Of a DNA stretch of 64,000 nucleotides, positions 7,638 through 63,555 are shown one piece after another. The position numbers and the translations under genes were made by a program. Origin of the DNA: Lingula anatina (lineage: Eukaryota > Animalia > Brachiopoda); contig CM120641.1 in NCBI GenBank assembly GCA_051362555.1, positions 43,840,401 through 43,904,400 on the forward strand, written 5' to 3'. The notes beneath the pieces were generated by a model. That model was not told the origin of the DNA, made no database searches, and saw nothing but the letters and a program-made list of their open reading frames with translations. Each line of letters opens with the position of its first letter. Position 1 is the first letter of the stretch.

Positions 7638-10600
7638 TAAAAATAAAAAATTAACACATTTATTAGTTATAACTAACAATGCTTAAAGGGACAATAACTC
7701 TTCGTTTTGGCCAAAAAATGAATTTTCCTGGAGTAAACAACAATTTTCCCATACTTATCAATGGTTAATGAATCCATTTTTACATTTAAAGTTAGTCCCT
7801 GGTTTTTTTCTAAAAAGTTTGGTTTTTTGTTAAAATCTCTTAAGATCTCTTAAGAGATTTTAACAGAGTATAGCCATCAATGGAGGTCACATGGTCTGAA
7901 GACAAGCTCAGATATCAAAATAATAGCTATAACTGCTGTTTTTGTGGTAAAACAGAATATATTATATTTCTTTGAGTTATTCACAATGTTTCTATTGTGA
8001 AATATAGATCTCATATGAAGAGTTATTATCCCTTTAATATTCCCTAACAGCAAGCAAGCCGCACAATGTATGTTGACCTTAAAATAACAAAACTTGAATT
8101 TTCCAAGAAGTATCAGCTCTCAATTATTTATTTTTGCTATATAGGGGTATAGGATTTATGCTTTTAAACACGCAATTCAGATTCCAGCCTGTCAATCAAG
8201 CCAGTAGATTGTGTATTTTTATCAAAATAGTCAAGATATTCTACTAATGACTGACAGATGTAAACAAGCAGTCTGTGTGTCAATGATAAGGGAAAATACA
8301 TTTACATGTAAAAAATGTTCAGATTTCATTCTCATCTGAAATTCCATAATTCGGTAGTAAATTTTGTGGATAGAAAAAAAAATTTAACTGAACCAGAATT
8401 TCTTTTCCCTTGATGTGAGATTAGCTGAACACCAAGTACATGTGGAAAAAAACAAATAAATAAAATAATAATAAAACTCCCAAGGTGATAAAAACCAGGG
8501 AGATAAGGATGAAAAAAATAAACTGTGGTCTACAGTCTGCAGAGGTAGACAGAGACATGCTTTTTTCACATTTATCTCAAAATATAACAGTCAGCTGCCA
8601 GCAACTAATCTGATAACTTATCAGATAAAACTTACCACCCATACACAGACATCAAAAGTGATTAACAAAAACAGAGATACACGAGTGCAATTTAACTCCT
8701 GTTACAATATGAGAACTACAACAACTAACCACTGTCTCGTCATACTCCTTGGCTGCTGGGTTAACGGTGACAATCATGCGGACTTTCCCTTCACCGTCAA
8801 AGTAGTTCTTGAAGAGATGGGTCAGTTTGGAGTCCCTGTATGGCACCATCTGGAACAAGAGAGGAACAAGGTTAGTAATATGAAAATTAGATGTATTTGA
8901 ATGCACCTTGGCTGATACGCAAAAATAGAAATTGCTAATGTTTTAGACTGATTAGATAGCTACTTTCTTATAGTGAACTAACACGGCTTTATTCTGAACT
9001 GAAGTGGTCCAAAATTTTCAGTCATAAAATTAACACTTTCAGTCTTTTAATTCTTCTGTCAAAATAAGACCTGGGGTATTTTCCTAAGCATAGTTTTAAA
9101 TTATCTCTGTATGAATCACCAAACAGCATGATAACCTAACAGCCATTAATTTCAAAAACACTTCAGTCTTCAGTCAATTTTTTGATACAAAAAGGCCATA
9201 TTGCATCCACCTACCTTGTTAGCTCCTAGAAGCTGATTCTCTCTCAATGCATCCATGCATGCTCTAAGTGCCATTAAAGACTGGTTGATGTTACCTAAAT
9301 ATTGACAGAAGAAATAGCAAGACTAGTTTTAAAATTGGATTTAAAACCAATCCCCTTCGTCGTAAATTTACTTTGTAAATTAATTTCGCAATTTTTTTTT
9401 AGATTTCATGGAGTCATGTGTTATGTAGACTAATAGATAAAAACAATAAAAGCATAAATTCATTTAAAACAAGTTCACCACTTTAAAAAATTTAAAGGAA
9501 TAATAACTCTTCGTATGAGATCTATATTTCACAATAAAAACCTTGTGAATAACTCATAGAAATATAATATATTCTGTTTTACCACAAAAACAGCAGTTAT
9601 AGCTTTTATTCTGATATTTGAACTTGTCTTTAGACCACGTGACCTCCACTGATGTCTATACTCTGTTAAAATCTCTTAAGAGATTTTAACCAAAAACCAA
9701 ACTTTTTAGAAAAAAACCAGGGACTAACTTTGAATGTAAAAATGGATTCATTAACCATTGGTAAGTATGGGAAAATTGTTGTTTACTCCAGGAAAATTCA
9801 TTTTTTGGCCGAAACGAAGAGTTATTATTGCTTTAACCTAGAAGACAACAACTGGGTTCATCATAGTAAAATTAAAGCCAAATACTGTACACATTCTTAT
9901 TTGACTAAGAAAAATATAAAACATGTCATTGTTTTTCATAAACTCAGTACTGATTAATAAATCTGACTTTGCAAAAATAAATTCTATCCAGAAGAAACCC
10001 TTAATTTTGTATTGAAGTAAAGTATCAGCTCACCAGCTTCTCTCAGCCTGTCCCCAACATTGTTTGTCCTCACTAATCTCTCACTTCCAGCAAGATCTAC
10101 CAGGGCTAACTGACTGGAGCACACCCGAGACTTGTCCTGTATAATAATAACAACACAATAATAAATAACATTAAAAATAAAGGCAATCTCTTGACAGGAA
10201 ATAAATATTTTTATGCAAACTGGGACAATTGCTGGTGTTATATTAAAAATCTTAGATATCCAAATGAATACAGGAAACTCTCTTCGTTTTGGTAAGTTTA
10301 AAAATATCAACAAACACAGACACAAACTGTACTTCTACTTCTCTATTCAACCAGAAAATATTTGAATACACCCAACTGATCTTGTTTAATTAACAACAAT
10401 GATAAATTCTTGTTTATTAACAATGATAAACTGTCTGTGTACCTGTAAAACCTCCTCCCCAAGAGGATCCAGTGGAGCCTGCACCAGTCTGATGTTAAAC
10501 ACACTGTGACTACGACTGGACTCTGTATTTAGAGCAGTGTGAGCCACCTTCCTTCTTTTCTGACCTGAACATAAATACAAGAACATCTCAGCCTGTGCCT

Positions 10601-17341: not shown

Positions 17342-17375
17342 GTGAAACCAAGGAGTTATAACTCCTTGGTGAAAC
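17342..17375. mobile_element. P-superfamily-like excision footprint (20-nt palindrome, 7-bp TSD)
   Basis: GTGAAAC-CAAGGAGTTATAACTCCTTG-GTGAAAC. Confidence 0.65.
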
Positions 17376-18856: not shown

Positions 18857-19114
18857 GCGTAGTCCGGTCGACCGTGAGGGCGCCACTTGAGGAAAAGGCA
18901 AATGCCTGTTGATAAAACTGATAAATGTAGTAGAGCGATGAGTTTGCTGTCCCTTGAACCCCAGGGTGGTTTCAGTAGACAAGTTAGGTAATGTTCTGTC
19001 TGGCTGCGTATTTGATATCATTTTAATGCTGACTTGTGAGGAAGACAGTTTGTTATCAAAGTGTTCCTTTACATTAGGCCTAAGTCTTTCGAGATGATGA
19101 AGCGACGGATTACA

Positions 19115-21502
19115 ATGGCAAAACAATTTGGCATTTCGACGATATTGCTCCTGTTCTTTTGTCAAGGATACGCTGTAACAGTTTTCGAGCGTTACTGGGA
19201 AAATGTCCAGACGAATATTTATGGGTCATTACCAGAGCCTGAATTGGGCAACTGCACGCAAACAGATTATCTTAAGTGCACACAAGTAAGAAGAAAAGAA
19301 TCCGTCACAACTGCAAGGATTCGCACTCATTATTCGGATTATTTCAACGTTAGCGGAACTGATTACGAACACGACGCTCAAATATCGGACTATATCCGTT
19401 ACGTTGGCCGGCCGCTTATCAATTGCATTGGGTTGATTTGCAATACACTTACCATATGTGTTTTTGCCCGAAAAGAACTCCGCCGTGTAGCGACCTGTCA
19501 GTTCTTGATCGCTGTAGCGGTGGCGGACATATTGATATTGATAAATGGTATTTTTTACTGGATTGAATACGAGCTCTTAACCCCTGTGATGACGGCCAGT
19601 GAAGTGACATGTAGAATAACTGTATTCACGGTGTATTGCGGACCTCAAATTAGCGGGATTACTTTGATTGTCATGAGCATCGAGAGACTTATGAGAATTA
19701 TTGACCCTTGTGCTCATGAGAGGTGCTTTTCTATTAAGATGACTCGTTTGTATATCGTGGTAATTGTCTTGGCCATGGTGCTCTTGAATATCTGCATATT
19801 CTTCACCAACATATACTTCAAGGAATGCAGTAAGTGGGTTTGTTGGAATATATACCATGATAGCAGGGATATACTGGAACTCCACTATGAAAGGTGCAGA
19901 AACTGTACTGACTGTGATGACTGTGGTAAGTATTTAGCTTCGAGTGCGTATAGGCAGGTTTATGTATACAGTAGATGCTATCTAGCAAAAAGGTTCACTG
20001 AGACGAATTATATACAACAATGACCAATAAATCTTGAATTATTCATGAATCTTAATTACATAAATGCAATAGCATCTTTGCTTCTTCAATTTATTCAATA
20101 ATCTAGAGACCAACTCGTTTTCTCAATATCGTTTCCACTCCACCCCGTTTTTTCAGAGCAAATTTAAAAAGGATATTAACTGTCCGTATGAGATTAATAT
20201 TTCATAATAAATACATTTTAAACAAATCAAAAATATACAATAAATTCCATTTTACCACCCAAACAGCAGTTACCGCAATTATTCTGGGATCTGTGCTTGC
20301 CATCAGACCACGTGGACCTTCATAGATAGCAATACGTCCGTAATATTATTTAATTTCTTAAGAAGTTATTGCGAAAAAAAAAAGACATTGGTAAGTACAG
20401 TGTATGGGATATCGTCGTTTACCCCAGGACAATCCGTTTTGTTTATCGCCAAAACGAACAGTTGTTATCCCTTTAAAATCATACCCTCCTCCGTCTTGAA
20501 ATTAAGAAGAACCATTATCCATTGAAATAGCGATAAAAATGGCCAAATTGTAAAAATGATATTGTAAAGTAATTATCGGGAAATATGTCCTTGTCATCTT
20601 TTTTAAATAGCTAAAAAAATACATATTCCACCCAAAAAGAGTGGTAACTTTATTCACATTATGATATATGTATAATTGTTTTATGCCACTTTAATTGCTG
20701 TTGATTCTTTCCCATATATTGAAGGGTGGCCTGATATAGTAAATATAAGTTTCTAAAGCGAAAAACACTAGGGCAAGTCAAAACTATGCAAATATTGCAC
20801 AAAGTGACTATGTCACTGACGTGACACAAATGTTCCCCTTTTTATGACCTCGATCTATTTTCAGGCGTTCCAGGGTTGTTGGAGTTGTTGGACTTCTATG
20901 ATGTGTACAAGTGGGTAGCTTTTGCGATATACTGGGCCTTACCATGCCTTTTACTGCCTGTTATCAACGGTTGGTTACTGTACCAAATATATTTGGCAAG
21001 AAAACGATCGCGAGGAACTGAAGAAGAGATCAGCGTACCAAATCACTTCTACGGATCTAGTGATGATGGTGACTTAGAGGACGACGTGGAAAGGGAAAAA
21101 GCGGAAAAAGAAGTCACAATAATGTTGGTCCTGGTCACGGCATCGTATTGTATTTTGACCACGGGATTTAATTTTATACAGGTTGGAATCATTGACGTTT
21201 ACGGCTCTGGCAGTGACCAAGATCTAATTAAGTTTTCTTACGTGTATTCCGTTTTCATTCTTCTTTTTTACTTGAATCATGCGTCTAATTTTTTTCTGTA
21301 CTGTATTAGTGTTAGGCCATACCGCGATGAATTGAAATGTATGTTGATGTGTTTCTGTGAATGCATTGCAAGACCATTGCTTAAAATTAAATGGGCTTGT
21401 AAGGGCATCTGTAGGCGGAATGATGAAGATGAGAACGATACAGACGAAACCCCTCTTCAAATGAGCGGCAGAAGCAGAATTGCTTATGGATCGTGTGTTT
21501 AG
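19115..21502 (+). CDS. Class A (rhodopsin-like) invertebrate peptide-type GPCR, FMRFamide-receptor/GPR139-142-like; 2 exons, about 482 aa
   Basis: Exon 1 is 19115 (alternative ATG 19094) to 19925, donor G|GTAAG. Exon 2 is 20865-21502, acceptor TTTTCAG, phase 1, in frame. Signal-peptide-like MAKQFGISTILLLFFCQGYA; TM1 GLICN, TM2 IAVAVAD, TM3 C...MSIERL, TM5 YWALP, TM6 VTIMLVLVT, TM7 NHASNFFLYC. Confidence 0.9.
20164..20476. mobile_element. Kolobok/T2-like MITE, diverged copy 3, in the GPCR intron
   Basis: TTAA...AGGATATTAACTGTCCGTATGAGAT...CGAACAGTTGTTATCCCT-TTAA; colinear with 9492-9836. Confidence 0.7.
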
Positions 21503-21685: not shown

Positions 21686-21787
21686 GGGTTCCCATACCCT
21701 CTACCAGGGCGAGTGATAGATTTTTTACAGATATTCACAATATCTGTAAAAATCTATCACTCGCCCTGGTAGAGGGTAGGGTTCCCA
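21686..21787. mobile_element. 84-nt fold-back micro-element with a 9-bp TSD (MULE- or Academ-type)
   Basis: GGGTTCCCA-[TACCCTCTACCAGGGCGAGTGATAGATTTTTTACAGATATT-CAC-AATATCTGTAAAAATCTATCACTCGCCCTGGTAGAGGGTA]-GGGTTCCCA. Confidence 0.8.
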
Positions 21788-22156
21788 TAACCCTATCATA
21801 CTATCAAGGTTGATATGACTCCGAGGGGATTCTAGCTAAATTGCATTCAGTTTAATTCACTTTAAGGATATCGTGTTTTATGGCACATTGATAATTGTTA
21901 GATTACAGTAACTATGACGTGATGTGTGATATGTGTGCAGCAACCAATAAATTTTATATGAAGCAGGTATGTTTTGGATCAACTCGTGATGCTGTCTCGG
22001 TTTTCTGCAGTTGCAGTCCATGAGTTAAGGGGGTCGTAACATTAGGATTTTTGTCTGCTTAGATAAAGCAGAGATAAACATTGTAATTTTATGAGGTAAT
22101 GTTATCGCATTAAAAAAAACATCGGAATGAATTTGCTAGCTCGAGCTGATGACGCC

Positions 22157-23390: not shown

Positions 23391-24584
23391 ACCATCCATG
23401 GGATTGGTGTTAATCATATTGTTGTCTGTCAGGTCATACAGACAGGTCTGACAGACAGTTTAACGGGCAGGCAGATAAATACAACTCTCATCTGTCTGAA
23501 CTTTCTGGTGGCATAAGGGACTAATCAACCTTAAACAGCCTGTTTATCTACCTGATGGCGTACACCTGAAACCTCTTGGCCAGTACAGGTTATATGAATG
23601 TTTTTAACAAAGGGCTGTTACTGAACAAAAATATATTTAATAATGACATGCTGTTCCATAATTACGCTGAACGCTTTATGGTGAGAAATAACTGGTTAGC
23701 ATTTATGAATGGTTGTCAGCTGACCATAAAGCTATTTGTCTTGTATTTCTTTCTTTCTTTTTCTTTTTTTTTTTTTTTTTTTTTTTTTGGGGGGGGGGGG
23801 TCATCTGTGTGAGGCACTACATGTGTCAAAGACAGAAGCTTTGAACTGATTGTTGCTCTGTCACTGCCAGGATAAAAGTGCAGAGGTTCTTCAATCATTA
23901 ACCTCACAAATATAGGCTATGATTTATGGCAGAAACTCCCATCCATCCCTTCTCCTCTGTGCAGACTTTATTTATAGGTGACTGTGCAATTGTGGTAGTG
24001 AGTAGATTGCCTTGGTGCATTCTTAAAAAAACCTCATGTTTGCAATATCTTTGTACGTCATCAGAAATCAAATATGGGTGGCATGAATATTGAGAAGGTT
24101 TTTTTTTCAGTTTGTGTATGTGTCATTTCATTTGTATCATCAGCATGAGCCTGGGGATACTCATTGTTTAAGCCTTGACCCGTCTTGTTATTACTTGTTT
24201 GTTGCTTGTTTCCAGTTATGTTTTATGTTTAAAGGGATAGCAACTCCATGTAAGAGATCCATATTTCACATGAAAAACATTGTAAACAACTAAAAAAAAA
24301 AATCCATTTTAGCACCAAAATGACAGTTGTTGCAATTAATTTGGAATATTTGGACTTAAGCATGTGGTTCCATTGGACCACATGAATCTTCATAGATGGC
24401 TGCCCTTTGTAATAATCTATCAAGAAAAAAAAGGAATTATTCTTAGACTAACTTTTGAGTGTCGTAATGAATTCACTAAACCACTGCTTAGTATGGGAAA
24501 ATCCCCATTTACCCCAGCAAAATCAATTTTATGGCACTTCCTGCAAAAATTAGCGGTTGTTGCCCCATAATGTTTGTGTTGTTT

Positions 24585-24702
24585 TGTGGTATTGTGTGCT
24601 GGTGTGGCATATTATTAGTTGTAAAAAATATTAGCAAGTGTCTGTGGTAATATGCCATGCCTATGCACACCTGATGAGTTCAAATAAGAACGAAACATCA
24701 CA
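24585..24702 (+). ncRNA. Type III hammerhead ribozyme, slightly degenerate (cleavage triplet AUU)
   Basis: UGUGGU-AUU-GUGUGC-U-GGUGUGGCAUAUUA...UAAUAUGCCAUGCC-UAU-GCACAC-CUGAUGA-GUUC-AAAUAA-GAAC-GAAA-CAUCACA. Intact core, stems I/II/III pair, one A-C mismatch next to the core in stem III. Predicted cut after 24593. Confidence 0.8.
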
Positions 24703-25380
24703 TTTAAATGTGTTATGTGCTATTATATTAAATGATAGTTAACTTAAGTTTTTTATAATTTATTTTCACTATAATAATGTAATAAATAATGTCTCTCATA
24801 AAATCCAAAACTATCCACAGGGTTATGTAAATGCACCTGAGCTAATTTTATAAAGATATGTATGTACTGTTTATTCGTGTTACAAGAAAGGGTAAGTTGA
24901 AATAAACCTCTATGATAAATATGCAATGATGTTCACATAAATCTAATGCCACTTTCTTCTTTTTGTAATTTTTATTATTGTTTTTTTTTTGCACGAGATT
25001 AAAGAGGTCACTGTAGCAACCTGACAGCATGCAGAAATAGATGTGTGTGTGCCTCTGTCAAGAGGTATAAATCATTAGTTAACTAAAGGAATTAGTGTAT
25101 ATGGTCCCACTCAAGTTAAATCACATCAAAAAAAGTTTTTAGTTACAGAGCATTACGTATATTTAAAAACAATCTCTGATTTAAAATAGACACAAACAAT
25201 TTGAGCTTATTCTTTGGGTCTTAGTATCCCTTAACACAATATTTCTCAAACTTTGCAATAGTAAAATAACACTATTACTATAAAAAATTAAAAAAAAAAG
25301 TTCTAGACAATCAATTACCGCATGGTTTATTATTAAGGTTTTATTGAAAAGATCCCAGGTGCTGCTGACTTTCAAGTCAC

Positions 25381-25541
25381 TGGCGTTTCGTTCTTATTAG
25401 AACTCTTCAGGTGTGCATAGGCTATGAAAGGAATGGTATTAATATGCTGAATATTAACAAACTACATGTATATTAATACACATGATTAATATTCCACACA
25501 AACTGTAACTATTCACCTCCATAGCCAGCAACACGACGCCA
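25381..25541 (-). ncRNA. Type III hammerhead ribozyme with canonical GUC cleavage triplet
   Basis: Minus strand: UGGC-GUC-GUG(U)UGC-U-GGCUAUGGAGG...(long loop)...CUUUCAUAGCC-UAU-GCACAC-CUGAAGA-GUUC-UAAUAA-GAAC-GAAA-CGCCA. Perfect 6-bp stem III, 4-bp stem II, long stem I. Predicted cut between 25535 and 25534. Confidence 0.9.
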
Positions 25542-25815
25542 CATTCAAAACACGGAAATCCAGCAAATTGGTCACATTCTTAATTAGTAGCAGTCAAATA
25601 TCAACTAAAATATTACCAGAACTGCTTTTAATGATACTGCTAATATATTTCTGTCATGAATCATAACATTGAATGACAATCAGATAAATCTTGGACCATG
25701 TTACTGAATCTCTGTCTTGATAAACATAATATATGCTAACAAGGATTAGGAATGTTATATGAAACACATACACAAACTGTGAAGTTCTCCTCAACTACCA
25801 TGCATGTATCTTGGT

Positions 25816-25862
25816 GTTTTATCAAGGAGTTATAACAGTCTGTTATAACTCCTTGGTTTTAT
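25816..25862. mobile_element. P-superfamily-like excision footprint (33 nt = 17+16 nt of TIR, 7-bp TSD)
   Basis: GTTTTAT-CAAGGAGTTATAACAGTCTGTTATAACTCCTTG-GTTTTAT. Confidence 0.7.
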
Positions 25863-26873: not shown

Positions 26874-27344
26874 GTTTATACAAGGTGTTACAACTCCTTG
26901 GTTTATACAAGTTTAAGTCCTTTTCATGGATTATATTACATTTTTTGTGTTTTTTCATCTTACCTAAATCAAGATGCAAAGAAATAGCATGAAAAGGGAT
27001 ATGCAGAAAATTCAACATTCAATTTGACATTCATTCAAGATGTAACACAAGACTGCCCCTGTAGTTACTCGGAACATTGCAAAATATACTACCTGTCAGA
27101 AATGTAGAAAATCAAGGAGTTACAACTCCTTGGTTTATACAAGTTTAAGTCCTTTTCATGGATTATATTACATTTTTTGTGTTTTTTCATCTTACCTAAA
27201 TCAAGATGCAAAGAAATAGCATCAAAAGGGATATGCAGAAAATTCAACATTCAATTTGACATTCATTCAAGATGTAACACAAGACTGCCCCTGTAGTTAC
27301 TCGGAACATTGCAAAATATACTACCTGTCAGAAATGTAGAAAAT
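26874..27344. repeat. 232-bp tandem duplication, each unit headed by a P-like footprint palindrome
   Basis: Units 26881-27112 and 27113-27344 are nearly identical. The first footprint, CAAGGTGTTACAACTCCTTG, is flanked by a GTTTATA TSD. The second, CAAGGAGTTACAACTCCTTG, sits exactly at the junction. Confidence 0.9.
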
Positions 27345-28030
27345 CGTTAAGTTACACGTTATTTTGGTTCCTAAAATTTTTACATATTCAAAATCAAAAG
27401 TCAAACTTAAAAAAAAAAAAAACGAACAGATTAAGAAAAATCATCCTACCTGCGTTTGGCACAATTCAAAAGAACTATAATATACTATAGTATACTATCT
27501 GTGTGTTTGCTTAAAAAAAAAAAAACTGGGAAGAATGTTGTAATATGTGCCTGAAGCTTGGTGTGGCACGTCTTGGTCACGTGGGTTTAAAAAGCGGGAA
27601 ATTGCAGTGTGTAATGCGCAATGTCAGGTGAAGGATATGATGCAACGTTTCTACCACTATAATCTTACATGAAGCTGTTGGTTTTATTCATGGTTTATCA
27701 AATTACATTGAATCACAACAAATGCAAGAAAGAATTAATTCACAATTTATATGACCAAACTTGTAACGTTCTCCTCCACTTTCTCACTGCTGACTAAAAT
27801 TCTTACAGACTACTGTTTGTGGTTTTTATAAAGACAAGTCTGGAAATATCTTCTTATAAGACAGATTTAAAAGAATATTACATTTGGTAACCTTAAAGAA
27901 CCACATATTTTCCTTTCTTTTTTTGTTCTTTCTTTCTTTTTAAAAAGTATTTACAATACCAGTCAACTTCTCAACTTACAATAATGCAATCAATGATTGT
28001 ATTAAGTGTCTCCTGGTTAAAAAGTTAGTT

Positions 28031-31000
28031 CTAGAGTCTTGCCAAGGGTCCATCAGTGTCCACCTCTCGACACTTATTAAACGCATCACAGTAGCCAGCA
28101 AAATTGTTGCATGGCGCACCTGATACAAATACAGATGGAAGAAGAAGGTAAACATGGTATACTGACATTTCGCAAAAAAAGTAAGTGGTTTTTCTTTCTT
28201 TCTTTTTTTTTTTAACAAAATGTAGCCTACTGAACATTTAAAATAAATATCATACCCTTTACAAATAAATGTCATTATGATTGTTATCATCTTTATCAAT
28301 ATCATCTAACATTCATAACATTATTATGCTAGAGGTTTTCTGGTGAAAAAAAAAAAAAACATCTAGCCTTTCATAAATCTTCACCAATTAAATCCTTACA
28401 CACAACTATTAACAAATAATAATTAAATTAATCTAAAGTCTCATATCTTTAAATGCTCAGTAGACTTTAAAACACTAAAATACTAAAGAATTAAAAACAA
28501 GTTGTAAAACCATAGTTAAGTCATCATACAAATCAAAACTACATGCCCAACAATGAAATTATTCTACCCCATCTATATAACACCTATCAATAAACTACAC
28601 CTCCATCAAAATCCACTATTCCGTCCTAGACACCCATCCACTCCCACTCACAACTATACACACCCAATATACTATACTCACCAGGGGGCGCTTTGATAGC
28701 ATCTCCATTGGTAACAGTTTTTAACATGGCCTTAAAAGTATCTGGAAAACCGCCATCCTTTTGATTCAAAGAGCTCCAGCATTTTGAATCATTCCCTTCT
28801 ACAATTAGGAAAATATAGCACATATCTCAGTTGAATGTCAGAATTATTTCAGAAAATTATCCTGTTAAAAAAATTATACACGTAGAAACTGTGAGTTATA
28901 TACTTATCCAACCACATTTTAAAATACATTTTATAACAACTACGACATTAACCACTGGCTTGACTGGCAATCTCAGTAAAAATCGGACTGGGCCAGTAGA
29001 TTTTATTCAGCAGAAACATGTGCTCAATTTTTAATAATTTGTTTAATGTTCAGACTTAATGTCGATATACTTATTTTTAAACAACATTTTAAAAATCCCA
29101 TATTTTTGTTCTTAATTTCAATAGAAAGTCTGTTTAATCTTAGTGTGTTAATTCAAGTATTTTTCTTTTTTTTTTGAAAACTGGACATGGGCCAGTGAAT
29201 TTGTGTTTTGGCCAGTAAATTCTCAGACCCTAAAGGTCCTAATGGTCTGTAACTTGAAAAGTCTTTTGCACAGACTGTTATTATAACAGAAAGAAAACCA
29301 ACATACCTCTACAAGATACATAACATAAGGATGTCTTGTCAACTTTTTTATCTTTAAGATCAGCTTTAATGAAGCACTCCTCCCAACGGACATTATTACT
29401 CTCCATTCTTTCACATATAGACCCAGTGCATTCCTAAAGAGAAAATGGAAAACGTCTTTAACCACTATAAAGTTGATTACCTGGTTAATATTGAAGTGAG
29501 TTATCTTTACCTGACAAAATTCCTTACACTAACTATCAAATTAACAGTGTGAAGGCTTACTGAAAAATCAAAAAAAGGCTATATATACACTATTCAAATT
29601 CTTTGCTATGTCAAAAGGGCAATAACTGCTCATATGAATGAGATATTTAAATCAATAAGTTTTATGCTACACAGGAAGCACAAGGTACCACTTGTTTATA
29701 GAAATAGAAGCTGAATACTGTGGTCAATTCATCGGTCAAAATTATTGAAGAGATATGTAAGTGTCAAAACATTATGTACTCCCCTACACAACAACAATAT
29801 AATAATAATAATAATAGTAAATCATTGATGTTAGAATTTATTGTCATTTTGTTGTTTGTTGATCATTTGACTACCATTGTTAGGTATCAGGGGATTGAGA
29901 ATTACCAGAGCATCTACTAATTAAATATCACATTACAACAATTTCAAAAAAACTATTCTAATAGTAATCCATTGGTGTAGTCTTTGTTTGGAAGGTCACA
30001 TTGTGACCAAAATCTTTGTAATTTGTAGTTTAATTTTTTTAGAAAGTGAAAAGTTTAGTTTTATAACATGACAATCATATTGTTAATATCCTTATAGAAG
30101 AATCACTGAGATAAGATATACTGAACACAGCAGAAAAACTTACCCCTTGTTTGCATACTTTGGTATTATTTTTACAGGGTGAGTAGTCCGGCTTCAATGT
30201 TGAGTCTGGACAAGTGTAGTTTGTTCCCGTGAGATGGGAGTTAAGGCAAATATTTTACTGACATAAAAGAGTACTTCACCAATGATTTAAATTGCATGCA
30301 GTTAAAATCACCTAAAAAGTTATCATAGCATATGGTCATATATAAAAAAAGCTGGCAATGTGAAAATCTGACTTCTAAATCTCAATTTACTATAATTATT
30401 ATCATAATTATCCATTAGGCAAACTGGTCTATAATGCAAAAGTTATATGTCCTGTAAATCAAGGATATCTACAAATCTGTTGTTCATTGCAATCTGCAGC
30501 AGCTCTGCATACAAGCTTCTTTGAATCTGGAACATAGTCACAGGTAGTTGCATTACAACATGGCCCTTGCGACGGACTGAAAGGAAAAATTATGAATAAA
30601 AAATTAACCAGTTGCCATACAATTCAACTGTAATGATTTCCCTCACAATTTATCTAGCTGAAGTTGATTCCATTCATTTATGGCAATTCACAGAACAACT
30701 TTACCCAAATTTTATGTACTTGGTTTATATGTCTATTACTGTGTAAAATGCACTAAAATGGTAAATATATTTTTTAGATCAGCTTTTCAATTACTAAATA
30801 ATGAAACAAAGTCAAAATAAACAAAGCAAGATCAGAAAATGCCATATTAATGGCAGATCCAGGTGGCATGCACAGAGGGAATATATCCTTCCGTCTTCTA
30901 AAGAAAGTTAGCACCCATTCCCCTGCCCTAAAAATTACATAAAAGTTGTCCTTATGTACCATTTTGTATTTTCTAAGCGAAGCAAGGTGAAATTTTTCAT

Positions 31001-34000
31001 GCTTGTTTTCCCCTTCAGTAAACTGCTGCATCTGGTACTGTAACAATCCATATTTCCCCTTACCTACACACTGTGCCAGGCTTTCTTTTACATGCATTAC
31101 TGCTACTGCCACTTTCTACTGCTGGGTTGCAGCACTTGTCTGTACATTCCCCATTACTGTTGGCAAATCCACAGTCACATTCCTCTCCTTCTTCTACTAT
31201 GTTGTTTCCACAGAAAGCAGCATCACTGCCTGTGGCACAGAAGATAATATCATTTAGTACTTATTCAACAGAAGATATAAAATTTACACTTCATGCAACA
31301 CCTTATCTATGAGACTGTAGAGAAAAATCAAGATAGGTTTTAAAGTAATAAATATTAAATCAAATATACCAAATTTTTTATTAATATTCACTCAACAAGA
31401 TACTGACTCAACCATTTTCTCTTACAAATGTGACTAAAAGGCACTTGTAAGGACAGCCAAACATTCTAGATTTGATATGAAAATCTATGAATTCTTTTAG
31501 TAACTTCTTACAGTGGAAAATATTTTTAACCACTATAAAGTCTATTACCTGGTTAATATAGAAGTGAGTTATCCTTACCTGACAAAATTCCTTATAGTAA
31601 CTATCAAATTACCAGTGTGAAGGCTTACTGAAAGAATGAAAAAGGCTGGGGACTTTTATTTGTTTTATCTGATATTCAAATTCTTTGCTATGCCGAATGG
31701 GTAATAATTGCTCATAAGGATGAGATGTTTAAATCAAGTTTTACACTACACAAGGTTCCACATGTTAATAGAAATAGAAGCTGAATACTGTGGTCAATTT
31801 ATTGGTCAAAAGAGATACTAGTATGCAAGTGTTAAAACATTGTGTACTCCCCATACACAACAACAACAAATAATAATAATAATAAGATTTTAATAAGATT
31901 TTTTTAGGTATATGAACCACCAGTACACTATTATGAATAAAATTCACCCATCTCCATAATTTTGTTTATGGGTGGTAAAAATCAGAAATTTTGAATTGGA
32001 GAATGGGTTTGTGGGTTGCAATTTCCTTTCAGTTTTGGTCAGGGTATACTTTGGTGAAAAGGTGTTCAAATAAGGGCACATTCCCATAGATTTTAGATCA
32101 ATCTATCCCCGTGGGGAGTCTCACTAGATTACTGTCAGATAATCCGGCTTAAATGTCCGTCCCGCCTACTGCAAGCTGCAATGGGGTAATTAACTTTCGT
32201 GCCCACTCGGCTGACAGCTATTTAGCTTGAACCCGCAGGGATTTAGGTCGATCTAGTTGGATCAATCTAATCTCTGGAAATGGGGTCTAAGAAGGAAAAT
32301 CAATATTTTGCTATGTAAAGGTCTAACACACATTGAATGCCAGTAGTAAATCTTACCAATAAGACAGTTCACTTTGTTGGCTCCCCTGTTCAGAGCATCA
32401 AGAACCAGAGTGATGTTGTCTTTACTGCAAGGGGAGAACAGCTTGTTGTTTGGTTTTTCTCCAGAGGTAGCACTTGCAAACATGATATAGTTCCCATTTC
32501 TGTCACCCATTGATGTGTAGGGTGTACACTTGCTTCCCTGGTCATGCTAAAATAATTATATTTTAGAACTTCAGTATTTATCTAATTATTTATTTATTTG
32601 TTTGTTTATTAACTTATTAACTTATCTATATAGTGGTATATATATTTTTTCTTTTTTTTTTTTACCACTTATCTTGTCATATTTCTTTATTCAGTTCTTA
32701 ATTATTTTTTTCAACACAAAATGAGAGCATAAAGGATCCTATGGTCATAAGGTGATATCCCTTTTCTCTAATCTGATAAAAACATCTATTCATCTACAAG
32801 CAGTACAGTTTTATTTTGTAGATCACATTCCACATCTGAATATTTTATACTAAATCAGTGACAAATGTAGTTAAATGCAGTATTTTGAACATCTCTCTCT
32901 TTTGTTTCTTTTCTTTTCTTTCTCGTTTTCTTAAAATCACCAGCTTTTTGTATTCTACTAAACACCAAGAGAAGGCGTGCTATGTTAGACTGATCTATGT
33001 AGAATGACAGATTCATTGCGAATGTGCCTTAACACACTATGGACTCACCGGTGACCCAAAGTTATGACCGATTTCGTGGGCCAGCGTCAGTGAGGAAACC
33101 CTGGATGGAACAGTCTGCCCATAGTTAATGAAGGTCACAATGCCTGTGTTCAGACTCTTGTACACTTTGAGGGTGCTGGTGGCTTGGCCACGCCCATATT
33201 CCTTGTACTCCTTCCATTTTTCACATATGCCACCAAATGCCCCTTAAGAAGAAGTCACATTTTTATTTTGTGCGTGTGTGTATGTGTGTGTGCATGCATG
33301 CATGACTTCCATCGATGAATAATTACATAAACAATAACTAAATATTTATGTGATTTAATGTATGATTAAAAATTCATGTTTAAAAAGTTTCATCAGTTTG
33401 GTAGATAGTAAAAATCAAATACCCTTTTGAAGATGGCCAAATGTTGAAATACTTCACAAGAGTTTTCTTTTTCTAGGTTTGTGACAAAAGAACTTTTCAT
33501 CTCAAATAAATAAATAAAGAAATATGATAACATATTGACCATGAATTACAAAATCTTTCTCCTGTCCACCACAAAAGGAAACAAAGATTGCACCACTTAC
33601 TTTTTGATCCCTCCCACGCCAGTCCCAGGGTGCCTCCAGTGAAATCACGATACGTGAACATGTACGCCAGGCAGTACTTGTCGTGGTTCATTTTAGAGTT
33701 TAGGTTAAGGAAGTGGATGACAGATATATATCTAATGCAGAAGTCTTTAACAGCTGCTAGTGAGCAGTCACTACGCTTGAAAATCTGAAATGTAACATTA
33801 AATGGCAGTCTGAGATCATACTTCTGGTCCATGGCAATTAACCACAAAGTTGGGGATTTTGTAAAAAATCTATTAAACTATGTTAAAAGTTAAAATAGTA
33901 ACTGTAAATTTTATACTGCAACTGCAGCCTTCACTCACTCTGACAACATGAGAGGTACTTCACAGAAAAGCCAACAGGCCTGTTTTCTGGTGCTTCTCAT

Positions 34001-37000
34001 CATATCTGTTGAAACTGCCATAGTAACATGCGTAAGGCACAAACACATACAAAAAACATTTTACTGCTTTTGATGCCTAGAAAAAAGACCCATGTGTTGA
34101 GTTTCTCACATAAACAAACAAGCAACGAATGCAAGCTACATCATTTTTGGGTCCTTTTCTCTTGTCATATGCAGTGGTATTAGTCATTTACAACATTTGT
34201 CGACAAGGCCTATGTAATATGTGTATTTTAAAATACACCTTGCTGACTCATGGTATATCTAATACTTACCCTCACTCTTTGAACACGGAAACTATAACCA
34301 GTCAGTTTCTTGGATCCATCATATGTCTCAAATATTGTGTTCTGATATATGTCCTTGATGGCCGTGACATGGGTATGAAACATGGCTATAATGGCTTCTT
34401 CTGTACGCATGTCATCCTGTGGGTTGAATAAAAATGAAAACATAAAGAGAATATTTAAAATTTGATTAAAGCACTAGTTCACTTGACATCACGTCATAGA
34501 ACCCATTCTATTAAAATCTAAAAACATAAAAGGCAAACAAAAAAATAAAATCCTTCCTTAGAAAACTTTTATACAAAAATTCTAAAAATATATAAACAAA
34601 CAAATAGGAAATAAAATCAAGACTAAAAAAAAAATTATATAAATAATGCATAATATACAAACATTAATAAACAAGGACTGGAGTGGAAAAAATAGAGCAG
34701 GGTAAATACAGTAGAGTACAGCAGAGTAGAGCAAAGGAGAGTAGATTAGAGCAGAGAAGAGTACATACAATAGAACAGAGCAGAGTAGAACAAAATATTC
34801 AAGGTGCAGCAAGTTGGACGTCAACTATATAACATACACTATACATTTGTCTCATGTGATCCCACAGTGCAGGGTCTGACTGTAAGAGCAGACTGCAGGT
34901 GTTTTTTTGCGGAGTGAATAAAGTGACAGTCGCTCTCTTCTGCCAGTTTTCTTCCTCTCGTTTCACCCTGTTCAAAGCCTCAGAATAGATATTGTGCTCC
35001 CTCTGATGATCTTCCCTGGTAGCCGTCCTGTAACTTTTCTGGAAACATAAACATGGGTGTCAGGACAGCATACTCCAATGTTAAATATAGGTGTCAGCAC
35101 TGAATATTTTCTTGCTTTACATCTATAGGTGTCAAGACTATTTACTTCTCAGGTTAAAAATTAAATACTCATTTTGACTGTCATTTGATAGTTTTCACTA
35201 AGATATTGGATTTATTTTGGTTTAAGACATGAAGATGCTCTCTATTGTGTACTTGTTAACATGCCATTTATATGGCAAAGAAATAGTTAACTGTCTAGAT
35301 ATAATATACATCACTTGGATCCAAGAGCTCCATTTATAACAAACCCTGCAGAAGCAAGAAGTCACATTTACTTCTTATAATCAAGGACCTTTTTACAAAG
35401 AACTTGAAACTCTTAAATTCTTCTTACTTCCAAAACTGTTCTAAATTCTTTAGTTCAAAATACAATAGACAGAAATCTTTTTTTAGTATGAATATTTAAG
35501 TACACAATGAGCAGTATTCAGAGAAAAATTTATCTCGTAATGTCAACACTAATTCAACAATCAGCATGGCATAACATATCCATACGGGTTGAAAAATTAA
35601 TATCTAGGAAAATATACTCTCTTTGTCCTCCCTCCTTTTTAATTTAAAAAAAATTGCCATATAAAGGTGTAATACACATTGTATAATTAAATACAATTTT
35701 ACCTACTTTCTTTACATCCACAGCAGAATTCTGAACTCTGCTCATCCAGTCTGCAATGTCACTATTGCTATTTCCACACTGAGCAGTACCAGCTGCACTG
35801 CGGATATGCCTGAAAAAATAAAAAATAATACAATTACCAGGATAACTTTAAAACAAGGGACCCATTTCACAACAATTCTAAAAGTTTTGGGTTGACCAAA
35901 TACCACTCAGCTTGCATAGACTTCAAAATAAAATTCTCTGTGAGATATTGTTTTAGAGCATTTCATAAAAGATTGGCCCAGAATAAATCTAATGCAAAAC
36001 TCAAAATGCAAAGATTTTTTTGCATATTAACAATGATAATATTGGCCCAAAAGTAATGCGAACAGATAACTGATAATTCTACTCAAAGCCATATCATGTG
36101 GAGTTATTTTGTTGGTACAGCAATGAAAATTGTGGTAGAGGAGACCTTGTACACAATAAAACAATGTGGCACAACAGTTTGTGAAATAGGCACACTGTCT
36201 CCTTTCCAGAAACATTAGGATGTTATTTGGTATGTACCATTACTGGACCAGTGTTTGTCCTGCTAAAGATCATGTGAATACTGTGCTTGCTCAACCACAA
36301 GAAAAATTTGAAATAATTAAAAATCAAGCAGAGCACTGATATTGGGAGTTAATTACTACTTTTGTCCAGTATCAATAATTAATGGTTTTTCTCAAAAAAG
36401 TGAAAAAAGGTTTAAGATAATTTTGATCAGCTTTCAACTGCAGTTTGTGTTATTGCTTGCAAATAATATTATATATTTGCAAATAAAGAAGTAAAAATTA
36501 GAAACATAAGGAATACATCAAAACCTTAACAGGCAAAAAAGAAATGCCATATTTCTCTAAATTCATGCCTTAATCTTCAGATTTTAAAATTATCTCTCAG
36601 TGGCATTAAAATAATAAATATAGATTACATTCATATATAACAATTCTAGAAGTGCTTCTCACCTGTATGGGTCCATATCCATATGATCCTCATGGTAGAT
36701 GATGGAATGGAACTTTTTCTTCTCTGTGACTTCTTTAGGGAAGTACTTGTTGGCATGTTCTATGTGCCACCTTCCAGTCTCTGGAGACTCAATGGTTCCT
36801 GTGAATACTCCACCTAACACACTGCCATACACAGATGACCCGGGCTCACCTGGAAGGGGAGGGGCGCAAATATACAGATTAGCTACTATACTGTGGCCCC
36901 ATTCAGAAAGGGAATTACCAGTCCGAGGATCAAATATGGCAACTCGCTACAAAGCTTGCCAACTAGAACCGAATAGATATCCTGTGGGGAAGTACGGATT

Positions 37001-40000
37001 CTAGTGGGTCAGTTAACATAATTCTGTGGGATAAAATACTAAAACTCAGTATCCACAGTTCAAATACATTCTTAACATCAAGTGGCCAGTGAAAGTCAAA
37101 CATTTTACATTTGTCAGCTGCATTAACTCAATCTTGTTGTAAACAAAATCATCCTTATCAAGTACATGTATGAATTACCTTTTCCCACTGTACAGAAAAG
37201 AAAACTAACTAAACAAGATGATGGAATCTCTATAATGGCTGCCCCCCTGGACTAAATTACTGATATCAAAATGCATGAGGATCTGAGGCCAATATTACAG
37301 ATGGCAGGCATCGTTACCTCTATCTGATAAAACCAAGAGTGAGGGTCAAGGAGGGCCTATCTAACTGGCTTATCATGTGACTAAGTAAAGACCAATCTTC
37401 TACACATAGTACACAAAACAACAAGTTTCTATCTTACTTAAATATCAAACTCAATAGTCATTAGGTATTTTAATAAAAGTGAAAGTGAAAGTTGATTATA
37501 ATTTCATTTTTGATATATTCCATTTCATTCAGTGGTTGTAAAAAAATAATTTTAGGGTATGGTATGTGCATTATTTCTGTTGTTGTGTCCATTTTGTCAA
37601 AAAAAATGTGGTCGAAAAAAATTATGTTGCAGAAAAAAAAAAAAAATCATGCATCCACAAGTTTTCACGAGAAAAAAAGGAAAATAGCAACACATTAAAG
37701 CTAAGCAAATTGTGTCATAAACCAGCTTAATCAAAGGCATGTCATTTTTTAACCAATTTCTGATATGAAGAAATTGTGTACATATATGATGACAATTTTA
37801 ATGACCAAAAAATATATGACCATTATACAAGACACTGTCATATTCAGCAGTGTATATAAGGAAAGTATTTCTATATATTTCTGTGGCTGATCTTAAACTT
37901 CAGTAGCAAGTATTCTCAATGATGATATGTGTGATTTGGCTGCCACCAAAGGCAATCATATAATAGACTTGGCAACACACTACTAAGGCGCATTCACAAT
38001 AAAACTATCGTACTAGGTAGGTAGTTCAAACTTCATTGGGCCCTCGCCTTCTCTTGTATCCAATGTACTCGTATAATCACCAGCTAATCTGTATTCTATT
38101 CAAAACCAGGAGGAGGTATGTTACTCTGTTCATCTGATTACATTCAGCAAGAGTCCCCACAGAGTCAGTTCAAAACTACCTAAATCGTTAGTTTGATTGT
38201 GAACACAAACATTATAAACATAAAGCAGCATTAAACTGGAGAAAATTTAATGACGTGGTTTCTATTATTTTCGATCACCTCTTGATGTTAATTTTTAACT
38301 ACTAGTACTTAATTTTGATTTCAACTAGTAAATATTTTAAAGTTTCTACTTATTAGCCAGAGTGACCAGTCAGTGAGCTGAACAGTAAAAGGTGCATCCA
38401 GCAATACTTTGTACACTTACCCCATAACTGCCCTCTGTATAGAAAACTGGTGTCCAATGGCTTTGTGCTTCCATCTCCATATTCGATATCTGCATTTTTA
38501 CTGAAGATCTTGGAGTCTTTTTGGAGTTCCAAATTAAAATTTCTGGAAAAAAGGAATGTTTTGTATCCTTTTTAAGTATTAAAGGAAAACATCTCCGATA
38601 AGGACAATACTGGTTAACGTTTTAGTATCTTTTTGAAGTTTTTAATCAACAAATAAGAAAGAAATATGTTATTCAAAACACAAACTTACATCAGATTTAA
38701 TAATGAAAATTGACATCTGAACATGATATCCAAATATGTAATTTGTAGGTGAGAACTTACCAATATAGTTACTTCTATCTAAGATCTAATAAACGTGTTT
38801 ATTAGATCTTAGCTTCTATTAATACTGTCCAAAATATTTATGTGGAATGAACAAAGGATAATATGCCAAATATACCTAAATCTGTCAATCAAAGAAACAC
38901 CAATAACTGACAAAAGAAAAGGTAAGATATGTATATTAAGATTTATTCTGTTTAAGATGTACTTATGAACACCTTGATTCATATCAACCAATTAAGTTGA
39001 TCTACACCTCTGTAAATAAAATATTACTGCACTTCCATATCTTGAGATAATACTGGTTTATTGATTTTTCTTGTTAACAATGAGCAAACCTAACATGTAC
39101 TCAAGATCTGTGTGTGACCTGGCATTTTTCATTTTTCTCCTTCTTCAGTTTTTCTTCTCTTAAACCTTTTACTTTCTCTTTGCCTTAGCTTCCACCTCTC
39201 TGTTTTTTTTTAAAGAAGAAATGACCAGACCAACAGTTTAATTTACTGATCCCATCAATATACCTTTACACAACAATTTTCTGGTTTGAAAGCTAAGGAT
39301 AACTTTTATGATAACAGTCACTGGACTTCTCAATACAGGACTTTTAAAAGCCCATATAAACTGAAACTAATTCAATTTGCAATATACAGTACTAGTGTGC
39401 TTCTACCAGACATGCTGAAAACTTTTCAGAATGGCCAGACATTTGGACTGGCAGTAATGAAAAATTTGCCAAATAGATTGGATTTTTGTTGGACCGAAAA
39501 TCACCCTATTCGTTTGAGACAGATATACCAGTACCATCAGGTAGCTTTAATTTGTTTGTGAATGTAATAGGTTTGAAATGGAAGGGAAAATACGTTTTGG
39601 GTTTTATATTATTTTATTAGTGAAGTATGTCGAATGATGACTGTAAATTCAAAATTGCGGTTCTTAAAACTCTTGTCGGTCCTTTGCACCAACCAAGTCC
39701 AATTCTTTGCCAGTCCAGATAAATTTTCCCGGTCATGACCAATCAGACCGACAGTTTCAGCATGTCTGTATTACATAAGGGACACCTGATATTTTACCTT
39801 ACCTGCTGTGAGCTTTAAACATGAGATTAAGGGTCGACTGGTCAGACAGTGACCGTTTGGCTCGGAGATGAAGGTTGTGAAGGTCATCCGCATCGTAATT
39901 TAATTCCTCGTAATGGGAAATATAGTCATTCAGTTTGTTCTTTGTGCCTGAAATATAACACAAAACATTGTCAAAAAATTGTGGTTAAAGTGTTTGTTTT

Positions 40001-40698
40001 GTTCTACATATTAGGCTCACTTTCTGAGGACAAACCTCATTCAAATGCTAAACATGCATAAACTTGAATTAAGAATACTGTAAATTATTCTCGTATTTTA
40101 ATTATTTGGTCATTTTCATCCTTGATTTGGCATGTATGCATGTTTTCGTGCACAAATACAAAAGAGAAGAAACAATGCTGCAGTGAAAAGCTTACAGTAC
40201 TTACATAACTTTTATCCAGAATTTACAAGGTTTGTCATTGTGATTTCTGAGTCTGTAAGTATGTGTTTGCATCAGTTTACAATATTAAGACATCTTTATG
40301 GCATCTTTGTTGATTAAGCATAATTACATAAAATGCTTTTCCACAAACCCAAGGACAAGGTAATAAGTGCATTAAATATTAGGTAATGGTCCCAGGCTGT
40401 TGTATGAGGGGGAAGAATAAACATATCACTGTCAGTCTACTTCAAATAGCAACTCATCAGAGCTATAATACATATGCTGTTATTTGCTCATGTCATTTAC
40501 CATACCTGTTGAATGCAGTCACACCTGCCTCCTCAGCTAAAAGCTATACTGCAATTTTATACCATAAATATATTATAGCATTGTAAAGAATAACCCCACG
40601 TTGTCACACAGTCACGACCAACCCCTAGACTCACCTGATCTGCATCGAAGCTGCAGACAGATCACCACCGTTACCCATGCTATCCTTCTGCACTTCAT
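28031..40698 (-). CDS. ADAM10: ADAM10/Kuzbanian-like metalloprotease, copy A; 16 coding exons, about 742 aa, ends before the transmembrane segment (predicted secreted)
   Basis: Exons 40635-40698, 39803-39947, 38421-38542, 36663-36849, 35707-35809, 34838-35038, 34270-34416, 33601-33784, 33049-33242, 32357-32546, 31064-31229, 30469-30576, 30144-30228, 29307-29433, 28682-28798, 28031-28119 (sum 2229 nt, all in phase). Signal peptide, prodomain with AQCG cysteine switch, [31 protein letters not shown], Met-turn GNYIMF, disintegrin [15 protein letters not shown], Cys-rich [29 protein letters not shown] then TAG. Confidence 0.9.
29460..31860. repeat. Dispersed direct repeat of about 310 bp (29460-29790 and 31529-31860) in two ADAM10-A introns
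   Basis: Both copies start ACCACTATAAAGT...TTACCTGGTTAATA.TGAAGTGAGTTATC and stay colinear to TGTACTCCCC. Probably a transposon fragment or local duplication. Confidence 0.75.
30229..30468 (-). other. U12-type (minor spliceosome) AT-AC intron in ADAM10 copy A
   Basis: 5' site TGTAG|ATATCCTTGA, branch site GCCTTAAC about 10 nt from the 3' end, 3' site CTCAC|G. Splicing restores QQIC-R-GTNYTCP, matching the ADAM10 disintegrin pattern. Confidence 0.92.
32074..32287. mobile_element. PIF/Harbinger (Tourist-like) MITE, 214 nt, TAA TSD
   Basis: TAA-GGGCACATTCCCATAGA...TCTCTGGAAATGGGGTC-TAA. The paralogous site in copy B (about 61015-61025) is empty with a single TTA. Confidence 0.85.
36893..37010. 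mobile_element. Partial copy of the 18285-18467 Harbinger-like MITE
   Basis: TGGCCCCATTCAGAA...GATCAAATATGGC...GAATAGATATCCTGTGGGGAAGTA. Confidence 0.6.
39407..39768. mobile_element. hAT-like MITE present only in ADAM10-A intron 2
   Basis: TIRs CAGACATGCTGAAA / TTTCAGCATGTCTG. Absent from the paralogous position in copy B (about 50470). Confidence 0.65.
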
Positions 40699-40712
40699 CT
40701 CCGTTTGTCAAC

Positions 40713-41835
40713 TGTTGTGTTGTTAAGTTGTTTTTGAAAAGAGAAAAATGCAAAATTCCAGAGTACTATCGATACACGTTTAGCCTTTTATTTTCCTGCT
40801 TTGCGTTTCTGATGTCTACATATATTCTCTAACATAGTGCTTCAGCAAAACATTACATTCCTCCCCACCTTGAATAAAGAGGCATGCAACTATGTATGTT
40901 TTGTCTTGAACATAAATTTAAATCTGAAAAATGAATTCTGAAAATGATGCAAAGAGAAAAGAAAGATTGCATTTAAGAACTGAGCCTTACTCTGGCTATT
41001 GGCACAGTTACACTTACTGTGGCAATGAATCATAAAATGTTTGCTTGGCACAAGTGAATTATAACGTTTATAAAATTGAGCACAGTTTTTTTTAGGCTGT
41101 TATGAGTGTATAGCATCATATGAAAGTTGTTCATTCAGTCTTTGGCAATAAGTTAAGAGATATACTGGTAGTCAACTAAAATATAATAATACTGCAAACA
41201 CTTAAGAAAATGTCATCAGTCTTTGGCAATAAGTAAAGAGATATACTGGTAGTCAATTAAAATCTAATAATACTGCAAGCACTTGAGAGAATGTCATCAT
41301 ATCTATCATAACTTGTTTCATGACATGGATAAAAATAAAAGATGTTTCAAATTATTAAGAGATTGATCCTAGGGTAAGGGTAGACTGTCCTTCCCTAGCT
41401 GTATGCTCAATAAGAACCGCAATTAGGCACTATTCTGGCCTTTTAGTGCGTGTTCATTATAAAATCCTTGGATTTTGAAGGCAGATTACATTCACGTCTG
41501 GGCCTTTCTGGTGGCATTAATGTTGCCCTATAGTGCCATCTGATGATTGGCTGGTTTGAGTTGCTGAAGTTGATAGGTTTGGTTCTTCTTCTTCATCATC
41601 AGATGATGGGACGTCTTCTGGGTACGCAGGAGAGGGCTCGATTCTCAGTGAATTCCTGGTAACCGTCTTCCCATTTCATGCAGCAGTTAACATTGACTCC
41701 TTCTGCTCACACACAACGAGGGGTTTTGGGTCAAAAGGTGGGTCAGCCTTCTTCCATCCTTCTTTCTTCAGTAGCACGGGATCACCAACCTTGATTGGAG
41801 ATTCTTTAACATAGGGCTTTATTGTTATCTCCATA
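40713..41835 (-). mobile_element. 5'-truncated Gypsy-type LTR retrotransposon: integrase C-terminus, 3' UTR, polypurine tract and 145-bp 3' LTR
   Basis: Minus-strand translation KPYVKESPIKVGDPVLLKKEGWKKADPPFDPKPLVV...SMLTAA*NGKTVTRNS (GPF/GPY module) and terminal RPRRECNLPSKSKDFIM. Tandem repeat of about 81 nt at 41136-41298. Polypurine tract AAGGTGGGGAGGAA at 40871-40858. LTR TGTAATG...ACAACA at 40857-40713 with an internal AATAAA. Confidence 0.85.
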
Positions 41836-42295: not shown

Positions 42296-42370
42296 TATTG
42301 TGTTGAGTCGTTTGTCGCCACAGGACCTTCATTTGGGCGAAAAAATAAGCTTAAACTAGCTAGTTGACAA

Positions 42371-63555
<21,185 letters not shown>

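Follow-up and report, generated by a model that had tools for sequence, protein, structure and literature searches.

A convergent pair of type III hammerhead motifs between a GPCR gene and a truncated ADAM10 duplicate in Lingula anatina

Introduction

Hammerhead ribozymes of type I are described as typical of animals and those of type III as typical of plants (PMC7761336). Animal retrozymes carry type I motifs in tandem repeats (PMC7229834) and have been described as Penelope derivatives (10.64898/2026.07.22.740005). Paired hammerheads of opposite polarity had been called typical of viroid-like RNAs in an earlier note on the DNA studied here, a statement that omits the dual minimal hammerheads on opposite strands, 100–700 bp apart, which are tied to Penelope-like elements (PMC4209133); inverted pLTR structures have been described as well (10.1101/2021.04.23.441226). 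Two further systems are of type III. The motif in the 3' UTRs of mammalian Clec2 mRNAs is an atypical, discontinuous hammerhead with a helix I of 150–1500 nt (PMC6155905), and HDV-like RNAs as well as termite and dipteran genomes contain type III motifs with a long helix I (PMC7936874). The hammerheads of the HDV-like RNAs have a loop-loop pseudoknot and a 6-bp helix II and belong to a circular RNA that carries an antigen ORF (PMC7936874).

The locus described here lies in a stretch of 64 kb of Lingula anatina DNA (hereafter the window, 34.9% GC) and resembles each of these systems in part. The core, the 4-bp stem II with its six-base loop and the UAY bulge after a proximal stem I of 6 bp are common to it, to the type I hammerheads that non-LTR retrozymes carry in animals (PMC7229834) and to the family Hammerhead_HH9 (RF02275), but the Lingula motifs are of type III with an open stem III of 6–8 bp, do not occur in tandem, have a low copy number and are convergent. 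Like the Clec2 ribozyme, they are animal type III hammerheads with a very large helix I and an AATAAA after the cut; unlike it, their helix I insert is a continuous hairpin of only 60–105 nt, and they form an opposite-strand pair known here from DNA rather than from mRNA 3' UTRs. The Penelope-like pairs (PMC4209133; 10.1101/2021.04.23.441226) also consist of two opposite-strand hammerheads 100–700 bp apart, but these are of type I and mostly minimal, whereas the Lingula pair is of type III and has no Penelope ORF remnant nearby. The HDV-like RNAs of toad and termite share the type III layout, the long helix I with an internal loop and homologous ribozymes on both polarities (PMC7936874), in contrast to which the Lingula unit has neither an ORF nor a rod fold. 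The existence of the pair was confirmed, and for an animal its architecture is unusual, yet each of its elements has a known neighbour. No published report of the motif was found in a search of the main text of openly accessible articles, and earlier genome-wide lists could contain it; the accessible parts of PMC3088659 and PMC10886601 do not mention the motif.

Results and Discussion

As claimed in the earlier note, two complete type III hammerheads face each other tail-to-tail, with about 680 nt between them (Table 1). Both contain all consensus core bases (CUGANGA, GAAA and UH around three helices), and each folds alone as a three-way junction, with fold z-scores against 200 shuffles of -3.3 for the plus motif and -5.5 for the minus motif. 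In the minimum-energy folds of both motifs stem III is open and stems I and II are closed, which is the type III topology; a good type I reading was sought for the plus and the minus motif and found for neither. Both copies have a long, capped stem I, composed of a 6-bp proximal part, a U/UAU internal loop and a long distal hairpin, together with a stem II of 4 bp closed by a six-base loop II and an open stem III of 6–8 bp. With as many as 3 mismatches allowed, a 26-nt pattern of the core was matched twice in the 64 kb and never in 100 shuffles. The identity of the catalytic segment shared by the two motifs in inverted orientation was reproduced at 36/38, with one mismatch at N7 in the core and the other at the first base of loop II. 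Contigs from the DNA runs X1 and X3 are identical or nearly identical to the window over most of 24400–25750, and the pair is therefore not an assembly artefact.

The surroundings of the pair also agree with what had been reported. The AATAAA hexamers are located as stated (Table 1; on the minus strand at 25345–25340 and 25331–25326), with the chance level being that an AATAAA starts within 80 nt of 9–12% of positions. The stop codon of the plus-strand GPCR lies at 21502 and the last detected exon of the minus-strand ADAM10 ends at 27977. Each ribozyme is found in the sense orientation of the gene pointing at it, 2.4–3.1 kb past the last coding exon, a distance within the travel of Pol II past a poly(A) site.

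Table 1. Position of the two hammerhead motifs and of features in their vicinity (numbering of the window)
Feature	Position	Strand	Basis or remark
Rhodopsin-family GPCR reading frames	19040–21502	+	Context; AATAAA at 21946 and 22326
MITE-like repeat, 343 bp, degenerate terminal inverted repeats	24229–24571		Ends 14 nt before plus ribozyme; context
Type III hammerhead, plus copy	24585–24702	+	Sequence, fold, Rfam HH9 28.5 bits (gathering 52)
Shared 38-nt segment (36/38, inverted relative to 25385–25422 on the minus strand)	24659–24696	+	Alignment
Spacer	24703–25380		25–32% GC, no long ORF, differs between copies
AATAAA	24781–24786	+	78 nt after plus ribozyme, 188 nt after cut site; candidate signal
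Two AATAAA hexamers	25326–25345	-	190 and 204 nt after minus cut site; candidate signals
Type III hammerhead, minus copy	25381–25541	-	Sequence, fold
Truncated ADAM10 duplicate	27977–40704	-	Context; AATAAA at 27688

The two copies differ in their predicted state. The plus copy (core 24671–24677, stem II 24678–24691) has the triplet AUU (H = U) with a predicted cut after 24593, and its stem III of 8 positions contains an A.C mismatch at 16.2/15.2, beside the core; its distal stem extends for about 15 bp beyond the proximal stem I and the internal loop. The minus copy (core 25410–25404) has a GUC triplet, a predicted cut after 25535 and a perfect stem III of 6 bp. Its distal hairpin is about 105 nt long, and its proximal stem I contains one extra U, where the contigs of X1 and X3 are gap-free. 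Hammerheads cleave fastest at GUC and GUA and can be slower by orders of magnitude at other triplets; they tolerate mismatches close to the core poorly (PMC3138052). The active-fold share, calculated for secondary structure only, was 0.27 for the bare plus motif and below 0.001 with at least 15 upstream bases. For the minus motif it was 0.69–0.73 in 15 of the 20 contexts, 0.36 in one and 0.005–0.09 in the four others, which included 60 upstream bases. The plus copy is predicted to be a weak or inactive cutter, and the minus copy is likely still able to cut. None of the Rfam hammerhead families (clan CL00010) reached its gathering threshold with either motif; the best was HH9, which scored 15.8 bits with the minus copy (plus copy and threshold in Table 1). 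If transcribed, each motif would fold during synthesis and would be cleaved 7–9 nt inside its 5' edge, and the downstream RNA would keep the ribozyme body as a hairpin-capped 5'-OH end. In an RNA of the whole unit, either core is predicted to pair with its counterpart's antisense only once about 700 further nucleotides have been made, which would be too late to stop a fast cut.

Comparison of the two motifs points to a common descent. Their stems III are five transitions apart, which account for a compensated pair, a wobble, a broken pair and the cut base; three of these five changes are compatible with CpG decay if the GUC form was ancestral (CpG observed/expected of 0.36 in the window). The distal parts of stem I align as well (p about 0.01, 2000 shuffles), with an extra paired segment on both stem I arms in the minus copy only. 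The tails of the motifs align weakly (p 0.05) and the upstream flanks are unlike (p 0.95); blastn-level inverted homology is confined to the 38 nt. From the stem III transitions, the alignment of the distal stems and the weak alignment of the tails it follows that the two motifs are old homologues. The earlier note had taken the stems, which differ in sequence and stay paired, as a sign of selection on structure. Selection on the ribozyme structure at some time is supported by the sequences, in which the copies differ only at free positions of the core and the core is unchanged in other copies with diverged flanks; stem III, however, is homologous and five transitions apart and does not count as independently paired.

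Other genomic copies were judged from contigs of X1 and X3 at 80% likeness. Contigs of the window's own haplotype have a depth of about 40–55, and the depth summed over the two core bins was about 540 in X1 and 520–535 in X3. This suggests roughly five cores per haploid genome, both window cores included, summed contig depth being no copy number. A divergent contig over 24570–24699 has 10 differences in 130 positions. Another (24670–24801) matches all 35 core bases at 24670–24704, but the 100 bases that follow have 7 substitutions and 13 gap letters. Divergent contigs were also obtained for 24782–24973 (15 differences in 193) and 25520–25728 (25 in 207), and the spacer and the right flank have therefore been duplicated too; some of the divergent contigs could be divergent alleles. 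The chance of an unchanged 35-nt core under neutrality is 5%, 2.5% and 0.3% at 8, 10 and 15% divergence, respectively (one post hoc test). A single X1 contig, from one of the two DNA runs, joins 24704 to 24808–24833 and further to 25373 and seems to be the same facing pair with another spacer; the 26-letter side of this joint was placed at 80% likeness and is of a kind often due to repeats. Among the differences listed (40 out of 95), three are located at fold-paired sites (24634, 24647 and 25496), and all three turn a G-U pair of the window into a Watson-Crick pair.

In RNA, no read with at least 90% identity was found on 24400–25750, a stretch without a control gene, in 9.5 million records of run X14 (about 6% of the run) or 11.1 million of X17 (about 25%). 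Eight reads of X14 and 19 of X17 were aligned, each below 90% likeness and almost every one on a repeat. The plus ribozyme is crossed uncut by a single X17 read, which has 16 differences, and the minus ribozyme is without a read. Because the stretch contains no control gene and the libraries lose short non-polyadenylated RNA, the blank means only that the locus is not in abundant mRNA of two samples. For a place between stop codon and poly(A) site, such as the Clec2 ribozyme has, the observations are a lack of close reads in X14 and X17 and an AATAAA ahead of the ribozyme in both neighbours.

The spacer (approximately 676–680 nt) is AT-rich, like host intergenic DNA, and folds no better than its shuffles (z of 0.46 and -0.03, 12 shuffles). 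Ribozymes are present on both polarities, as in viroid-like or HDV-like circular RNAs, and no fold that is rod-like or highly paired extends over all 957 nt of the unit. No terminal direct repeat of the unit was found, and none of the 49 stop-free frames of at least 48 aa between the two genes had a Pfam match. The earlier proposal that the unit is an integrated ambisense element was right in that core and anti-core form a duplex in the minimum-energy fold computed for the full unit; the spacer, however, is unstructured and has neither an ORF nor terminal redundancy. The type I layout and the same-strand tandem of 150–400 nt that characterize non-LTR retrozymes are missing, with no tandem unit around either motif, and the locus has neither the RT and GIY-YIG ORF nor the long direct or inverted arms of a Penelope-like pLTR. 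Close reads of the circular and linear monomer RNA that is abundant for non-LTR retrozymes were likewise not found in X14 and X17, whose libraries lose short non-polyadenylated RNA. A reading of the motifs as 1.1-mers of a type I retrozyme was not supported, the junction repeats being not significant (p 0.15 and 0.18) and the flanks upstream unlike.

With a relaxed pattern of bulge, core and loop II, at least 120 loci were detected in metagenome contigs. The 120 matches listed comprise 104 of type I, one of type III, 11 of neither layout and four at a contig end. Judged by sequence, the contact module of the Lingula motifs (UAU bulge and six-base loop II) corresponds to the usual one of type I hammerheads in animals. 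The sole type III motif among the 120 listed (L078, 1190–1275, minus strand) is intact and has the same module with a shorter distal stem; its contig is AT-rich, 205 kb long, without long ORFs and eukaryote-like, and contains no partner motif within 1.2 kb. An opposite-strand second core is present in at least five of the 120 listed loci. Four of them (L007, L010, L036 and L108) are divergent type I palindromes with near-identical arms of 200–520 nt, unlike the convergent Lingula pair. The fifth (L071) is a convergent type I pair of two families, 541 nt apart, with only the core in common. The number of five is a lower bound, because flanks were scanned for partners up to 1200 nt in 80 of the 120 loci and up to 300 nt in the other 40, and because the primary core was missed in six of the 120. 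The exact 35-nt core pattern gave no match in metagenome contigs. The stem II pattern was found once in viral contigs, in an ordinary short type III hammerhead, and the bulge-plus-loop pattern neither in viral contigs nor in prokaryote genomes.

The ADAM10 copy next to the minus ribozyme has two in-frame stops in its last detected exon and a changed first ATG, and exons for the transmembrane and cytoplasmic parts were sought in 1–28000 and not found. Its best RefSeq match, XP_013415888, ends at the same stop, and the truncation is therefore real. An ADAM10 exon in the window is 90% identical to XP_013415901 of Lingula anatina, and RefSeq contains at least three ADAM10 loci. The minus copy and a plus-strand copy at 42362–64000 and beyond form a head-to-head inverted duplication, spanning 27977–40713 on the minus and 42362–63636 on the plus strand, with blocks of 75–96% identity, the longest of which are 82–89% identical. 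The plus-strand copy has a 2-nt deletion in exon 60770–60956 and may be broken too. A minus-strand frame at 41458–41834, the N-terminus of the truncated ADAM10 in RefSeq-type models (P0033, P0035), resembles a mobile-element fragment rather than ADAM10.

The origin that we tentatively prefer, with a probability somewhat short of an even chance, is an old inverted duplication of a mobile hammerhead of the retrozyme or Penelope type, which would have few genomic copies and would be decaying at this locus with no role for the neighbouring genes. This origin is favoured by the type I contact module, by the opposite-strand partners in at least five of the 120 listed relatives, by the homology beyond the core and by the damage to the plus copy (AUU triplet, A.C mismatch and low active-fold share). 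The MITE-like insert, the truncated ADAM10, the poly(A) signals of both neighbours more than 2 kb ahead of the ribozymes (Table 1) and the RNA result argue in the same direction and against a host role, the last with the reservation that a control gene is lacking. Against a mobile relic stands that neither a tandem repeat nor a remnant of a reverse transcriptase or endonuclease was found near the pair, that four of the five listed opposite-strand pairs elsewhere are divergent palindromes and not convergent pairs sharing only the core, and that about five cores are few for a mobile family. The unchanged 35-base core beside a diverged flank is, moreover, compatible with continued selection in place.

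The conserved cores are explained equally well by a two-way cutting cassette kept by the host in a duplicated segment (possibly the 3' region of ADAM10, in which the pair would be an intron or a downstream element), which would cut read-through RNA from either side. We regard such a cassette as possible, though improbable. The window copy would then decay because the ADAM10 here is dead, and selection would keep an intact copy. The cores unchanged between genomic copies with flanks 8–15% or more apart fit this proposal, as does the match between this flank divergence and the identity of the longest ADAM10 blocks. In number, the three ADAM10 loci of RefSeq also come near the two or three pairs that the depth implies, all three fold-paired variants among the listed differences strengthen pairing, and the X1 contig seems to have both ribozymes in the same arrangement. 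This contig, however, is the only one with such a joint and has the short, repeat-prone side described above, and matching RNA is missing in X14 and X17. A more specific form, in which homologous hammerheads were rewired from a retrozyme to type III and are kept facing in several copies of the duplicated segment, cutting the nascent RNA of both strands, is rather doubtful.

An ambisense circular RNA of the viroid-like or HDV-like kind, with one ribozyme per polarity, which was reverse-transcribed and integrated long ago, is an unlikely source of the pair. Homologous, diverged type III motifs on both polarities with a long helix I and an internal loop are what the HDV-like RNAs of toad and termite would lead one to expect (PMC7936874), the extra segment paired on both stem I arms of the minus copy is of a sort seen in rod-like RNAs, and the spacer of the X1 contig may be much shorter. 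These points are opposed by the unstructured spacer, AT-rich like the host's intergenic DNA, by the failure to find a Pfam match in the 49 frames or a terminal direct repeat, and by a contact module of the animal type I kind instead of the HDV-like pseudoknot. Similarly small is the probability of two independent insertions from a dispersed family, an option raised in the earlier note, the units of which would be about 200 nt long (5' hammerhead, AT-rich tail and AATAAA). The nearly equal distances from cut to AATAAA (188 and 190 nt), the weakly aligning tails and the convergent pair at L071, in which only the core is common, are in line with it; but the spacer and the right flank are also found in other copies, the homology extends beyond the core, and with about five cores genome-wide at 80% likeness chance adjacency is very unlikely. 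It is highly improbable that the ribozymes serve this GPCR and this copy of ADAM10 as a terminator or as a switch for decay through the 3' UTR, as also proposed before, despite their sense orientation and distance: both genes have earlier poly(A) signals, the duplicate of ADAM10 is truncated, the plus ribozyme is damaged and preceded by a MITE-like insert, and Pol II reads through hammerheads in a reporter with expression persisting, the structured 5'-OH end being a poor Rat1 substrate (PMC2702688).

In the Lingula motif the contact module of animal type I hammerheads is combined with a type III layout in which stem I is long and capped. As a natural intermediate, such a layout would link the hammerheads of retrozymes with the discontinuous ribozyme of Clec2; one other eukaryote-like contig (L078) contains a similar motif in intact form. 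If the pair is only a relic, as preferred here, it adds brachiopods to the groups known to have type III hammerheads and means little more. If the facing pair is conserved and active, it would be a rare case of ribozyme domestication in an invertebrate, and among animals a host-kept cassette would be the first bidirectional self-cleaving element maintained by its host.

Other features of the window

The MITE-like repeat upstream of the plus ribozyme has 65–76% matches to three other copies in the window and belongs to a high-copy family that is also represented at 7683–8037, 9491–9836 and 20161–20335; the depth over a bin in this repeat (24492–24537) was 1316 and 1386. A tandem duplication of 232 bp (99% identity) is located at 26881–27345, and a family of short palindromic repeats at 17345–17370 and 25823–25857. 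On the GPCR side, a near-perfect 34-bp hairpin lies at 21692–21781, 190 nt after the stop codon, with microRNA matches at sub-threshold level only.
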